NCBI GenBank assembly: GCA_043783695.1
Contig: JAYVZC010000524.1
Coordinates: forward strand, 1-30,362
Direction of reading: 5' to 3'
Source: Bacteroidota bacterium
GTDB lineage: Bacteria; Bacteroidota; Bacteroidia; 2-12-FULL-35-15
Length of the DNA stretch: 30,362 nucleotides
Every line of letters begins with the position of its first letter. The stretch's first letter is position 1. The translations under genes and the position numbers were made by a program. The notes under the pieces are model-generated. The model ran no database searches. It had not been told where the DNA came from and was given only the letters and a program-made list of their open reading frames with translations. Of this stretch, positions 25,298-30,324 are shown piece by piece.

Positions 25298-25353
25298 ATT
25301 TTGATCTTCAAAAACATTTCAGATTGCTGTCATGCAAAAAAAGCATCTGAAAT

Positions 25354-25390
25354 AAAAAATCCCCGTTTCGTAGCATGGCGGGGATTTTTT
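25354..25390. terminator. Bidirectional intrinsic terminator
   Basis: AAAAAATCCCCG / CGGGGATTTTTT stem between convergent genes. Confidence 0.85.
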
Positions 25391-25397
25391 GCTTTTA

Positions 25398-28300
25398 TTA
25401 ATAAGCCAAATTCGGACCTAACCAACGTTCTGCTTTATCCAAACTCATTCCTTTTCTTTTAGCATAATCTACTACTTGATCTTGTTTAATTTTGCCAATT
25501 CCAAAATAGTGCGATTGAGGATGAGCAAAATATAAACCACTAACAGCAGCTGTTGGAAACATAGCCATGCTTTCTGTTAAAATCATTCCAGTATTTTTTT
25601 CTACATCCAATAATTTCCAGATAGTTGGTTTCTCGGTATGATCGGGTTGTGCCGGATAACCTGGAGCTGGACGAATTCCCGCGTATTCTTCCTTTATTAA
25701 TTCTTCATTTTTCAAATTCTCCTCTTTTGCATATCCCCAGAATTCTTTTCTCACTTTTTTATGCATCAACTCAGCAAAAGCTTCCGCCAAACGATCGGCC
25801 AATGCTTTTAACATGATGGCAGAATAATCGTCATGGTCTTTTTCGAAACGGGAAACGTGTTCATCAATTCCAATTCCGGTTGTGAGGGCAAAGGATCCAA
25901 TGTAATCAGACCTCACCCCCGGCCCCTCTCCGAAGGAGAGGGGTGCGAGTTCCTCTTTAATTTTTTTGATTACTTCATCTATGGAAGTTAAAACAGATTT
26001 GTTGGAAAAACGGATTACTCTGTATCCGATATCTTCAAGCATATACGTTCTCCCATCATCATATTCTTTTTGATGATTGTGAATCTCTCCATCAACTTCA
26101 ACAATTAGTTTCTCTTCAATACAAATAAAATCCGCTATAAATTGTCCTATTGGATGTTGTCTTCTAAACTTCGATTCTAATTTACGATTACGTAACTCTT
26201 GCCATAATTTTTCTTCCGCTGGAGTTGGTGATTTACGCATACTTTTCGCATGAAGAATATTTCGACTCCAATTTTCCCAATCTGCAGTATGATATCTCGG
26301 AACGCCTCCCCTCTCCTTCGGAGAGGGGCTGGGGGTGAGGTCTTTTGGCAAAACAAAATCCGACAAAGCAACATTATATTGTCCGGCTGGTTTTTTTGTT
26401 TGCTGGCGCAATGAATGAAAAGTTGTTTTTATTTCTTTTCTACTTTCATCAGTATAAACTTCTATATCATCTGAATTGATTTGATTAGCAGGATAAATTC
26501 CAATCACAGCATTTGCCTTCAGCCATTTTTCATCAATAATCTTTTTTAACATGGCTTGAGCATCGTCAAATAATTTACGTGCTTCTTCTCCACGAGTTGG
26601 GTCTTTTAATATTTTTGGATAAGAACCTTTCATTTCCCAAGAGATGAAGAAAGGTGTCCAGTCAATGTATTCAGCTATTTCCGATAAAGGATAATCATTG
26701 ATGACTTTATTTCCAATGAAAGATGGTTTTACAATTTCTGTTTTATTCCAATCAATTGGAAATTTATTTTCGCGTGCTTCTGCTATTGAAATAAATTTAT
26801 TTTGTGATTGAGCATTTTTATTTTGTTCGCGAACACGGTCATAATCCTTAGTGATTTCAACCATAAAAGCATCACGCAATTCATCCGAAATTAAACTACT
26901 AGCAACTGGAACTGATTTACTAGCATCGTTCACATGTACAACAGGACCAGAATAATTTTGAGCAATTTTTACAGCCGTATGCACTTTAGAAGTTGTTGCG
27001 CCACCAATTAATAAAGGAGTTTTAAATCCTAAACGTTCCATTTCTTTGGCAACATGAACCATTTCATCCAACGATGGTGTAATCAATCCGCTCAAACCAA
27101 TTATATCGACATCATGTTTTTTTGCTTCCTCTAAAATTTTATCAGCAGAAACCATTACACCTAAATCAATGATTTCATAATTGTTACAAGCCAATACCAC
27201 TCCGACAATATTTTTTCCAATATCGTGAACATCACCTTTTACCGTTGCCATTAATATTTTTCCGCGCCCCCTAGCCCCACCCGACCTCCCCAAAGGGGAG
27301 GAGCTGGATTTCGAGTCTAAGAATGATTTGATTTTAGCTAATACATTGTCTGTGTCAACGAGAACTTCTTCATTAGTAAATCGAATTACTTTGTATCCTT
27401 TTTCTTCCAACCAGCTAGTTCTTTGAGCATCATTTTCTATATTTTCTGGTAATTGATGAATTAAGCCATCAATTTCAATTATTAGTTTTTTTGATAAACA
27501 AACTAGGTCAGCAATATATTTTCCTATTATATGTTGTCTTCTAAATTTATGCTCCCCTAATTTTTTTCCTTTAACTAAACTCCATAAGGCATTCTCTGCT
27601 TCAGTGGGATTGCTTCTATGTTTTTCAGCAAACTCCTTCAAAAGTGGATATAAAATTGGATCCGCTGTTTCATAATCATGACGATGAGCAGCTCCCTTTC
27701 CTTCGGAAAGGGCTAGGGATAGGCTTTTTTCTTTTTCGGCTTGAAGATAGGGCTCTAAATATGCAACTGCTTTTTTCATAACACGTGCACTCTTCACCAC
27801 TTGAGGTAAAAACATTTTTCCGCTTCCAAACAAATCACCCACCACATTCATTCCATCCATCAATGGTCCTTCAATAACATGCAAGGGCCGGCCTAATTTT
27901 AATCTTGCCTCTTCTGTATCTACATCAATATATTCTACAAGTCCTTTTACAAGAGCATGACTCAAACGTTCCTCCACTGTTCCTTTTCTCCATTCTTCAT
28001 TTTTCTCCGCTTTTTCTTTTGTAATTCCTTTCAATGATTCAGCATGGTCAACTAATCTTTCTGTAGCATCATCTCTTCTGTTCAATAAAACATCTTCTAC
28101 CAATTCCAATAATGTTTTATCAATATCATCATACACTTGCAATTGTGCAGGATTTACAATTCCCATATCCATTCCTGCTTTTACAGCATGATATAAAAAT
28201 GCACCGTGAATTGCTTCACGCACATGATCATTCCCTCTGAAAGAAAATGAAACATTACTAACTCCTCCGCTCACTTTTGCAAACGGAAGATTTTCCTTGA

Positions 28301-30014
28301 TCCATTTTGTTGCGTTGAAAAAATCGAGTGCATTTAACCGATGTTCTTCCATTCCGGTTGCAACGGGAAAAATATTCGGATCGAAAATAATATCTTGCGG
28401 AGGAAAATGAACTTTATCTACAAGCACATCATAAGCTCGTTTGCAAATATCAATTCTGCGTTGCAATGTATCTGCTTGTCCTTGTTCATCAAAAGCCATA
28501 ACAATTACAGCGGCACCGTATTGTTTTATTTTATTGGCTTGTTCAATAAATTTTTCTTCTCCTTCTTTTAAAGAGATGGAATTTACAATTGCTTTTCCTT
28601 GAACACATTTTAAGCCTGCTTCAATCACACTCCATTTAGAAGAGTCGATCATTATCGGCACTTTACTGATATCCGGTTCAGATGCAATGAGATTTAAGAA
28701 CTTGGTCATTGCTGCTTCACTGTCCAACATTCCTTCATCCATGTTCACGTCAATTACCTGAGCTCCACCATCTACTTGATCTTTCGCAATAGACAATGCC
28801 TCTTCGTAATTTCCTTCGTTGATCAAACGCAAGAATTTTTTGGAACCTGTAACGTTTGTCCGTTCACCCACATTCATAAAATTACTTTCGGGACGAAGTG
28901 TTAATGGTTCCAATCCGCTCAAGTGCATTAATGTATCGGCTGCAGGTATTTTACGAGGCTTTGACTCTTTTGCCAATTCAGCAATCCGTTTGATATGTTC
29001 AGGAGTTGTTCCACAACATCCACCAACAATATTTAAAAATCCGGCACGTAAAAAATCTTCGATCTGATGTCCCATTTCATGAGCATCCTGATCGTATTCA
29101 CCAAACTGATTGGGCAATCCTGCATTGGGATATGCACTTACATAAAAAGGAGCTTTGTTTGAAAGCTCTTCTAAATAAGGACGCATATCTTTTGCACCCA
29201 AAGCACAATTTAAACCAACGCTTAATAAATCGACATGTGAAATAGAATTTAAAAATGCTTCCGTAGTTTGTCCAGATAATGTTCTACCACTTGCATCGGT
29301 AATTGTTCCCGACACCATTACTGGCATCATAATATTTTTTTCTTTGCAAACATTTTGAATAGCAAACAAAGCTGCTTTTGCATTCAAAGTATCAAAAATG
29401 GTTTCAACCAATAACAAATCTGCACCGCCTTCAATCAATCCACGAGCTTGTTCTGAATAAGCAACAACTAACTCATCAAAAGTAGTAGCACGAAATCCTG
29501 GATCGTTTACGTTTGGAGAAAGTGAAAGCGTTCTGTTGGTCGGGCCAAAAGCTCCTGCCACAAATACCCCACCCCTGCCCTCCCCAAAGGGGAGGGAGTT
29601 GATTTCTGCTAAATATTCTGCAACGGCTTCTTTTGCAATTTTTGCTGACTCGTAATTTAATTCATAAGCAAGCTCTTGCATGTCATAATCCGCCATTGCA
29701 ATTGTAGTTGCACTAAAAGTATTTGTTTCAATAATATCAGCTCCTGCTTTTAGATATTCTTTATGAATGGCTTTAATAATTTGCGGTTGAGTTATCGACA
29801 ATAAATCGTTATTCCCTTTCAAGTCTTTATGCCAATCTGCAAAGCGTTTGCTTCTGAAATCTTTTTCTTCCAGCTTATATTGTTGAATCATGGTACCCAT
29901 TGCACCATCAATTACCAAAATGCGTTTTTCTAATTCTTTTTTTATATCAGACCCCTCTCTAGTTCTCTCCATTGGGGAGAGAGGGTTGCCTTCACTTATC
30001 TTTATCGTATTCAT
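25398..30014 (-). CDS. metH: B12-dependent methionine synthase with two in-frame DUF559 insertions
   Basis: [34 protein letters not shown], pterin domain, [20 protein letters not shown] and GIRPAPGYP motifs. At 1538 aa it is longer than the about 1230 aa typical of the family. Confidence 0.95.
25908..26343 (-). mobile_element. Putative DUF559 endonuclease cassette B with 36-bp terminal inverted repeats, in frame in metH
   Basis: Inverted repeats at 25908-25943 and 26308-26343 match at 35 of 36 positions. The interior encodes PTPAEEKLW...[15 protein letters not shown]...[10 protein letters not shown]...GYRVIRFSN. The mobility is inferred. Confidence 0.8.
27264..27725 (-). mobile_element. Putative DUF559 endonuclease cassette A flanked by inverted family 1 hairpins, in frame in metH
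   Basis: Hairpins CCTCCCC-AAA-GGGGAGG (27285-27301) and CCCTTTCC-TTC-GGAAAGGG (27694-27712) in inverted orientation. The interior encodes PTEAENALW...[15 protein letters not shown]...[10 protein letters not shown]...GYKVIRFTN. Confidence 0.78.
29566..29597 (+). repeat. Solo family 1 hairpin, in frame in metH
   Basis: ACCCCACCCCTGCCCTCCCCAAAGGGGAGGGA, translated on the minus strand as [11 protein letters not shown]. Confidence 0.88.
29950..29985 (+). repeat. Degenerate solo family 1 hairpin in the metH N-terminal extension
   Basis: GACCCCTCTCTAGTTCTCTCCATTGGGGAGAGAGGG with stem TCTCTCC/GGAGAGA, translated as [12 protein letters not shown]. Confidence 0.7.
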
Positions 30015-30248: not shown

Positions 30249-30285
30249 AAAAAAAACTCCTCTCACTTTTACAGTCAGAGGAGTT
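30249..30285 (-). terminator. Intrinsic terminator of the riboswitch expression platform
   Basis: Minus strand AACTCCTCT...AGAGGAGTT followed by a U-run. Confidence 0.8.
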
Positions 30286-30324
30286 ATATAATTTTGTTTT
30301 TTATTTTCAAAAAAATTACTCTGA

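Follow-up and report, generated by a model that had tools for sequence, protein, structure and literature searches.

A nuclease domain within methionine synthase

The window studied here, that is, the whole stretch of DNA that was analyzed, comprises 30,362 nucleotides (nt) of contig JAYVZC010000524.1 (assembly GCA_043783695.1). It belongs to a metagenome-assembled genome (MAG) of a sediment bacterium from the phylum Bacteroidota, which we label G000. Positions 25398–30014 of the minus strand hold metH, which, according to its open reading frame (ORF) and translation, encodes a cobalamin-dependent methionine synthase of 1538 amino acids (aa). In this protein, Pfam detects the five usual modules (S-methyl_trans, Pterin_bind, B12-binding_2, B12-binding and Met_synt_B12) and, in addition, two DUF559 domains. 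We refer to the inserts that carry them as cassette A, located in the Cap:Cob linker, and cassette B, located in the reactivation domain. Cassette A is our main subject, and we consider it likely to be a selfish nuclease cassette that is read in the host frame, does not splice and spreads by recombination.

Cassette A occupies positions 27264–27725 of the minus strand, a total of 462 nt or 154 codons corresponding to residues S764–R917. A first-pass annotation, made from the letters of this DNA, had placed an insert of about 150 residues in the cap/cobalamin linker, and these boundaries bear it out. The cassette is in frame at both junctions, with residue 763 before it and G918 after it. Together with the codon for K763 (27726–27728), it stands in place of the native Cap:Cob linker of 45 nt (15 codons). 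The empty alleles of seven species of the same genus read EKE-ANRLAGIVGDGRSNA-GKIL at this position, so that cassette A substitutes for the linker instead of being added to it. In two further runs from the same study, contigs of relatives match on either side of the cassette and jump from 27264 to 27729.

Cassette A lacks both an in-frame Met codon and a stop codon and thus can be expressed solely as part of MetH. Pfam matches no HINT splicing family in the cassette, which begins with SLSL and finishes with GARGR directly before the host G. Likewise, no intron or other RNA from Rfam is matched inside metH. With neither a HINT match in Pfam nor a match in Rfam, an intein, intron or ribozyme at this site was ruled out. 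We also rejected a transposable element of the insertion sequence or miniature inverted-repeat type, as the inverted end units are unequal, a target-site duplication and a transposase are both absent and the insertion has replaced 45 nt of host DNA.

The MAG is fragmented (531 contigs, 88% complete) and its metH bears two cassettes as well as at least one solo repeat, which might speak for an assembly chimera or for a metH pseudogene that tolerates junk. We find such an explanation extremely improbable. Contigs of two sequencing runs span positions 26400–27839, which include cassette A and both junctions, with zero differences; the cassette is not an assembly artefact. Moreover, more than 1000 database proteins have related cores in frame. 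The metH ORF is intact, and the Zn-ligand motifs GLNCALG and GGCCGT are retained in addition to DxHxxG, GLSGL, GGATTS and RPAPGYP. Neither MetE nor a second MetH was found in the 88%-complete MAG, leaving metH as the sole methionine synthase detected. We infer from these sequence features that the enzyme is functional.

A conserved Vsr-like core on predicted disordered tethers

Residues ~781–899 of MetH (27318–27674, minus strand) make up a DUF559, or Vsr-like, nuclease core of the PD-(D/E)XK type. Cassette A matches PF04480 with 121.5 bits (cut-off 20.6) and an E-value of 1.8e-35. Sequence matches in PDB include 3hrl, a DUF559 structure (E = 7.6e-18), and 3r3p, the homing endonuclease I-Bth0305I (E = 1.4e-4). 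The fold was assigned from these matches together with the secondary structure predicted by AlphaFold2 (AF2). The Y-x-T-A-D motif that the first-pass annotation had noticed in both nucleases is indeed present, as YETAD in cassette A and YHTAD in cassette B.

The putative active-site codons lie within 27429–27596 of the minus strand and specify E807 (27594–27596), D836 (27507–27509), E847 (27474–27476), D849 (27468–27470), H853 (27456–27458) and D862 (27429–27431). All six residues are unchanged in 40 of 40 linker-site cassettes. Five of them, E807, D836, D849, H853 and D862, correspond to E170, D196, N208, H213 and D222 of I-Bth0305I, the EDxHD set (PMC3239194); D849, H853 and D862 were mapped by alignment to I-Bth0305I, and E807 and D836, mapped by position, are the putative equivalents. 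Substitution rates show the nuclease core to be under purifying selection, with dN/dS (the ratio of nonsynonymous to synonymous divergence) of about 0.1 for cassette A between G000 and its congener G017, a comparison in which dS is saturated.

In the AF2 model, the core of cassette A is a folded α/β domain with block-mean predicted local distance difference test (pLDDT) values mostly in the range of 80–95. Residues ~765–780 and 902–915, which are encoded by the DNA ends of the cassette, have pLDDT below 50. The end units are therefore predicted to be disordered tethers of ~15 residues each that flank the folded domain. A structural model had been suggested as a check of the first-pass annotation, and the AF2 prediction shows such a domain on two tethers. 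The same annotation stated that this linker moves during catalysis, which agrees with the literature: the Cap:Cob linker is Linker III, which mediates uncapping and the cap-on/cap-off movement (bioRxiv 10.1101/2024.08.29.610163). Disordered tethers around a folded domain would explain how a moving hinge can hold the insert.

For a background on linker length, we used a near-random sample of 76 bacterial MetH genes, only 2 of them filled, which had been retrieved with patterns from the MetH flanks. The Cap:Cob linker measures 32–43 residues in 72 of the 76. In two MAGs of Planctomycetota (L025 and L059) it reaches 83 and 67 residues, respectively, owing to added DNA of another kind that is repeat-like, GC-rich and nuclease-free. 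Judging from these two loci, the MetH hinge also accommodates unrelated inserts.

Hairpin units at the cassette ends

Cassette A is bounded by two units, both delineated by direct reading and folding and both translated as part of MetH. The gene-upstream unit (27689–27725, minus strand) consists of the tail GCCTATCCCTAG (27714–27725), the hairpin CCCTTTCC-TTCG-GGAAAGGG (27694–27713) and an inner CAGCTC (27689–27694). The gene-downstream unit (27264–27316, minus strand) consists of the tail GCGCCCCCTAGCCCCACCCGA (27264–27284), the hairpin CCTCCCC-AAA-GGGGAGG (27285–27301) and the inner extension AGCTGGATTTCG, which reaches to ~27316. Direct reading thus confirms the earlier observation that the two ends have different stem types. 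Both follow a common plan, in which a short spacer separates a C-rich tail from a hairpin and the tail mirrors the pyrimidine arm of that hairpin. In the upstream unit (parts CCTATCCC / CCCTTTCC / GGAAAGGG) the tail mirrors the stem arm at 7 of 8 positions, and in the downstream unit (parts CCCCACCC / CCTCCCC / GGGGAGG) at 6 of 7.

The folding energies of the hairpins are unremarkable on their own (z from -0.65 to -2.0). Since this signal is weak, we used conservation and covariation as evidence for the end units instead. Eleven linker-site cassettes, taken from different genomes, have the plan of tail and hairpin at either end, and across these 11 the tail, the 5′ arm and the 3′ arm co-vary. 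For example, C6 tails occur with C6 stems, CCCCATCCC with CCTTCCCC and CCCCCTCTC with TCTCCCCC.

The 118 tailed units of the G000 genome make up several subfamilies, distinguished by their inner extensions. Genome-wide, 32% of strand-oriented hairpins show a mirror match of at least 85%, compared with 0% at controls placed 200 nt away. The downstream unit of cassette A is a member of an abundant resident subfamily, GCCCCACCCGA-CCTCCCC-RAA-GGGGAGG-AGCT. Another subfamily, CCTCCCCCTG-CCCCCTC...GGGGG-ACAnGCTCCGAAA, flanks a stand-alone DUF559 gene on contig C55.

Inward of the hairpins, the first-pass annotation had pointed out GAGCTG (27301–27306) and its inverse CAGCTC (27689–27694) as a feature common to both ends. 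The pair is present, and as evidence it is weak. The AGCT past the downstream hairpin is part of the consensus of the resident subfamily, as illustrated by solo copies on C104, C194 and C217 that read GGGGAGG-AGCT, and two other MetH proteins, P0014 and P0013, are without the upstream CAGCTC at their matching ends.

It had also been proposed that cassette A was assembled from two pre-existing repeats, which could have explained its mismatched ends. This idea found no support. P0014, a metagenome MetH whose host part is ~92% identical, has the same unequal pair, with CCCTTTCC upstream and CCTCCCC downstream; its upstream end agrees with that of G000 at ~33 of 34 nt, and the cores are 61% identical at the aa level. 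A TT-type stem upstream combined with a CCTCCCC-type stem downstream is also found in P0013/G373, G071 and G085 and in same-clade cassettes in IcmF, ALDH-MaoC and IleRS. With this asymmetry common to P0014 and other cassettes, the unequal ends are, on comparative grounds, a trait of the cassette lineage, and neither a clock nor a sign of local assembly.

Units are also oriented with respect to the nuclease. Among the relatives' loci L099–L137 and the G000 contigs C55, C136 and C406, tails point outward in 15 of 26 in-frame DUF559 cassettes and inward in none, and stand-alone DUF559 genes have inward tails in 6 of 21 cases and outward tails in none. The stand-alone copies lack the Y-x-T-A-D start of the profile.

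The abundance of the repeats suggests a different explanation, similar to that of REPtrons, in which the tail and hairpin repeat, of an intrastrand-triplex type, is itself the mobile or recombinogenic entity. DUF559 would then be trapped cargo or an enzyme that maintains or spreads the solo repeats, and cassette A would have formed where two repeats and a nuclease gene met. Such a scenario is in line with the 118 tailed units set against 5 DUF559 genes, with the placement of the downstream end of A, AGCT extension included, in the most abundant resident subfamily and with the translation of solo units elsewhere in metH. The ends of the G000 and P0014 cassettes are also far better kept than their cores, and triplex motifs have been tied to genome instability in E. 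coli (PMC4666352). On the other hand, the unequal end pair and the same-clade core are inherited across species and host genes, which implies that they travel as one unit. The core is kept even where the hairpins have decayed, for example in Winogradskyella, and in the genus the linker of empty alleles is free of solo repeats, which leaves no landing pad or seed. Taken together, we judge a passenger role for the nuclease to be unlikely, though not negligibly so.

Filled linker sites are rare and patchy

When the linker region was used as the query, all 120 top matches were MetH proteins with PF04480 at the same site, with source names including Chitinophagaceae, Pedobacter, Sphingobacteriia, Flavobacteriales, Ignavibacteria and Verrucomicrobia. 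Among 5.8 billion proteins, the core nearest to that of cassette A has an identity of 75%. MetH was detected in 39 of the 41 genomes of our first draw. Within the genus (24 other species drawn), the linker site is filled, besides G000, in G017 only. At the class level, 6 of 400 genomes and 5 of 199 genera, G000 included, have a filled site. At the phylum level the count is 7 of 400 genomes, five of which are from other classes.

In a host tree built without the inserts, G000 is positioned amid empty alleles. Its nearest hosts, G023 and G020, have MetH proteins that are 95% identical and possess the native linker. Moreover, the filled G017 and the empty G010 are sisters (support 100/99), and the tree as a whole requires at least four changes between the filled and the empty state. 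Cassette identity to A does not follow host identity to G000 (r = -0.13): hosts that are 88–93% identical to G000 carry cassettes 60–70% identical to A, no nearer than those in hosts at 62–75%. Over all pairs, the median cassette identity is 0.88–0.99 where hosts are at least 90% identical. Close hosts thus usually share close cassettes, suggesting vertical descent over short times; the exceptions are host pairs 96% identical with cassettes only 60–61% identical. The G017 junction is unlike that of G000 in being without QAEKE. The rare and patchy filling, the discordance between hosts and cassettes and the differing junctions together point to repeated gain or replacement through recombination between alleles.

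One might instead view the cassette as a piece of MetH that has long been passed down vertically, is now useful, for example in a regulatory or DNA-associated role, and has been lost by many lineages. The strong conservation of the core, the retention of active-site residues across classes, the low dN/dS and the short-range co-divergence of cassettes and hosts would all be expected in that case. It would be difficult, however, to explain why only 1.5–1.75% of the sampled genomes are filled, why the cassette is present or absent within one genus, the absent state being an intact native linker, and why near-identical hosts have 60%-identical cassettes. The same cassette clade, in addition, occurs in unrelated enzymes. 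We therefore regard this view as improbable.

The same plan in other housekeeping genes

In relatives, the in-frame plan is also found in IcmF (two sites), an ALDH-MaoC fusion, a SpoIIE phosphatase, IleRS, Acs, LeuRS (two sites), RecJ, HsdR and MetRS. In this plan, Y-x-T-A-D and, after it, the DUF559 core stand between two tail-out units. A few of the cassettes from other hosts nest within the clade of linker-site cassettes, indicating that the lineage can switch host genes. About 20 methionyl-tRNA synthetases, some named Ferruginibacter (P0123, P0132, P0133, P0140, P0144, P0165 and others), have cores 63–70% identical to that of A, which makes them as near to A as most MetH cassettes. We found no paper combining DUF559 and methionine synthase, and the titles and abstracts of papers mentioning DUF559 do not describe in-frame DUF559 cassettes. 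Nor did we come across a paper that reports selfish DNA with this lifestyle.

Cassette B and additional repeat units in metH

Cassette B, delimited by its repeats and placed by the tree, spans 25908–26343 of the minus strand. This second DUF559 cassette belongs to another lineage. Its ends are terminal inverted repeats of 36 nt that are 97% complementary. Cassettes A and B are 49% identical. In a tree of 128 DUF559 domains, B joins the B-site cassettes of G023 (91% identical), G017 and G007 with a support of 98 in the Shimodaira–Hasegawa-like approximate likelihood-ratio test (SH-aLRT). Cassette A is found within an 86-row clade (support 97) that holds every linker-site cassette and does not include B. 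Forcing A and B to be sisters costs 62.8 log-likelihood units, and the approximately unbiased (AU) test gives p = 0.099. The independence of A from B, as proposed in the first-pass annotation, is thus supported by the 49% identity and by the tree, with sisterhood not formally rejected by the AU test. We reject a local duplication of B into A on the same two grounds; in view of p = 0.099 this rejection, too, is not a formal one.

The annotation further supposed that A was the older of the two, and here the order is likely to be the reverse. Between G000 and G023, cassette B has a dS of 0.74 and a dN/dS of 0.05, and the host metH has a dS of 0.60. The similarity of the two dS values indicates that B has been resident at least since the split of G000 and G023. 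Since the nearest hosts, G023 and G020, are empty at the linker and keep ANRLAGIVGDGRSNA, and B is common to G023 at a host-like dS, A is probably a later arrival than B in this lineage.

The inverted repeats of B are near-perfect in spite of the dS of 0.74 from the G023 counterpart (L013). Perfect ends are thus no sign of recent insertion, and something appears to keep the ends matched. The B site (…ADFVxP / DYxGxF…, the slash marking the insertion point) is also filled in MetH proteins of the Chitinophagaceae type (P0002–P0011, P0087 and P0111) and in G008 (L118), by cassettes from the linker-site clade and not from the clade of the G000 cassette B. Tree placement thus indicates that this permissive site is reused by different cassette lineages. 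In P0009 the two cassettes are sisters, but the second is at a nearby different site. The metH of G007 (L119) has a solo unit in a loop ~25 residues upstream of the B site and a B cassette without its upstream unit; the solo unit may be a rearranged cassette end.

Another solo unit of tail and hairpin, detected in a repeat search as family D3 and also with nhmmer, is translated within the Hcy domain of the G000 MetH (29569–29606, minus strand). It shares its subfamily with the downstream unit of A and is 79% identical to 27275–27312. A degenerate repeat unit is found at 29950–29985, within the N-terminal extension of the annotated metH ORF; translation may in truth begin downstream of this unit. 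At the edges of metH, 25316–25408 and 30250–30312 give weak Rfam matches to BSnc120 (28.5 bits) and tsr31 (31 bits), respectively; both are far below the gathering scores and probably are chance matches. Elsewhere, P0122 (1702 aa), P0012 (1642 aa), P0025 (1621 aa) and P0083 apparently have three cassettes or cassettes together with many solo units, and one such extra site in MetH is in the Hcy domain, ahead of MVSGTITD.

A possible mode of spread

The element is a DUF559 (Vsr-like, EDxHD-type) gene, start-less and stop-less, situated between two inverted GC-rich units with their tails outward. We propose that cassette A reached G000 when its lineage recombined with a filled metH allele, presumably after the split from the nearest sampled relatives and independently of B. 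The nuclease, which would be expressed only as an internal domain of MetH, may nick or cut DNA at empty alleles or at its own hairpin or triplex-type ends. Such nicking or cutting would provoke recombinational repair and in this way promote spread. In this reading, the movement would be driven by the cassette's own nuclease.

A more specific version is that cassette A is an autonomous homing-type element without an intron or intein, whose MetH-internal nuclease, held on tethers encoded by its own DNA ends, drives gene conversion. Homing of this kind would account for the repeated colonization or replacement at the Cap:Cob linker and in other housekeeping genes. An intact active site and the observed turnover speak in its favor, and the lack of a DNA-binding module, a conserved target and co-conversion speaks against it. 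For cleavage of empty alleles and copying by repair, the presence/absence polymorphism and the discordance between hosts and cassettes provide indirect evidence. On balance we put this version forward as a tentative and rather doubtful possibility.

A number of observations weigh against the selfish-cassette reading more generally. There is no target-site duplication at cassette A; the GAAAAA found on both sides is native sequence, present in empty alleles too. No co-conversion tract is seen beside the cassette at 90-nt resolution, the identity between G000 and G023 being 90–92% up to both junctions, equal to that in the rest of metH. The insertion point is in a poorly conserved linker and the upstream junction shifts by up to ~10 residues between lineages, which does not fit a classical sequence-specific homing site. 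Cassette A consists of the catalytic domain only (~120 aa): in its 154 residues Pfam gives only DUF559 and MTES_1575, and no DNA-binding module of the NUMOD or helix-turn-helix (HTH) kind. To our knowledge, no DUF559 protein has a known activity, cut site or target. Furthermore, gain and loss are not strictly separable, because the tree is unrooted for the filled and empty states and the filled relatives were picked with an insert-containing query. The plateau of cassette identity near 60% at long range could partly reflect saturation and not transfer. Finally, solo end units outnumber nuclease genes in G000 by ~20:1 (118 to 5), so that mobility or recombinogenic capacity could reside in the end repeats, with the nuclease as their passenger.

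Implications

If the selfish-cassette reading is correct, it would add a third strategy for selfish nucleases, with splicing neither at the RNA level, as in introns, nor at the protein level, as in inteins. The nuclease would simply stay in an essential protein as a tethered extra domain. For annotation, the cassettes are of relevance as they skew database names: proteins bearing them are now named DUF559 protein or dihydropteroate synthase. For protein engineering, the Cap:Cob linker of MetH stands out as permissive, since it takes an insert of 154 residues in a dynamic enzyme that has been studied a great deal. Association with a nuclease also suggests a possible enzyme partner for G/C-rich triplex-type repeats, the biology of which is unexplained. 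The metH locus itself could serve as a test system, as its filled allele can be set against the naturally empty ones of sister species and the gene also holds a second, older cassette.

Comparison with known systems

The closest counterparts of the nuclease are I-Bth0305I and related Vsr-like EDxHD homing endonucleases (PDB 3r3p; PMC3239194). They have in common with cassette A the nuclease fold, the conserved set of acidic and His residues, the location of the gene inside a conserved host gene and a patchy distribution suggestive of horizontal spread. However, I-Bth0305I resides in a group I intron and binds DNA through an N-terminal NUMOD/HTH region, whereas A has only the catalytic domain. 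Unlike these endonucleases, A is associated with neither an intron nor an intein and is not free-standing; it is read in the host frame and bounded by hairpins.

With respect to the mode of insertion, A resembles the spliceless insertions of the ShiLan type in actinophage DNA methylases (PMC11855218). There, too, the host frame stays open, splicing domains are not detectable and the insert is predicted to form a loop projecting from the host enzyme. In contrast to A, the HNH nuclease of ShiLan is out of frame and has its own GTG start and stop, while DUF559 in A is in the host frame and has neither. In addition, the ShiLan-type host is a phage, whereas that of A is cellular and the ends of A are GC-rich hairpins. 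Inteins with homing endonucleases likewise express a selfish nuclease gene through an essential host protein and show a preference for housekeeping enzymes. Unlike them, A has neither HINT nor splice-junction residues, and its insert is expected to remain in the mature protein.

The ends of the cassette have parallels of their own. The Rickettsia palindromic elements (RPEs) reported by Ogata et al. in 2000 are said to be palindromic repeats located in frame in essential genes and translated as tolerated surface or linker peptides, with no gene of their own. Cassette A is similar in arrangement, as its palindromic repeats are also translated in frame within an essential gene, but in A two units with a mirror tail bracket a nuclease domain. 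RAYTs, in the REP/RAYT systems known as REPtrons, are HUH transposases that reside between genes and are flanked by inverted hairpin repeats with many solo copies. A has in common with them an enzyme gene flanked by inverted copies of a hairpin repeat that is abundant in solo form; it differs in that the enzyme is a nuclease of the PD-(D/E)XK type and the unit is inside a reading frame.

The end units themselves have the architecture of the intrastrand triplex motifs (TMECO/BoxC/PIT), which are intergenic repeats with no associated enzyme described (PMC4666352). Both feature a G/C-rich hairpin preceded by a pyrimidine tract that mirrors the stem, and a genome holds many copies of either, with a link to rearrangement in both cases. 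The end units of cassette A, which resemble these motifs in sequence, differ from them in being translated and in flanking a nuclease.

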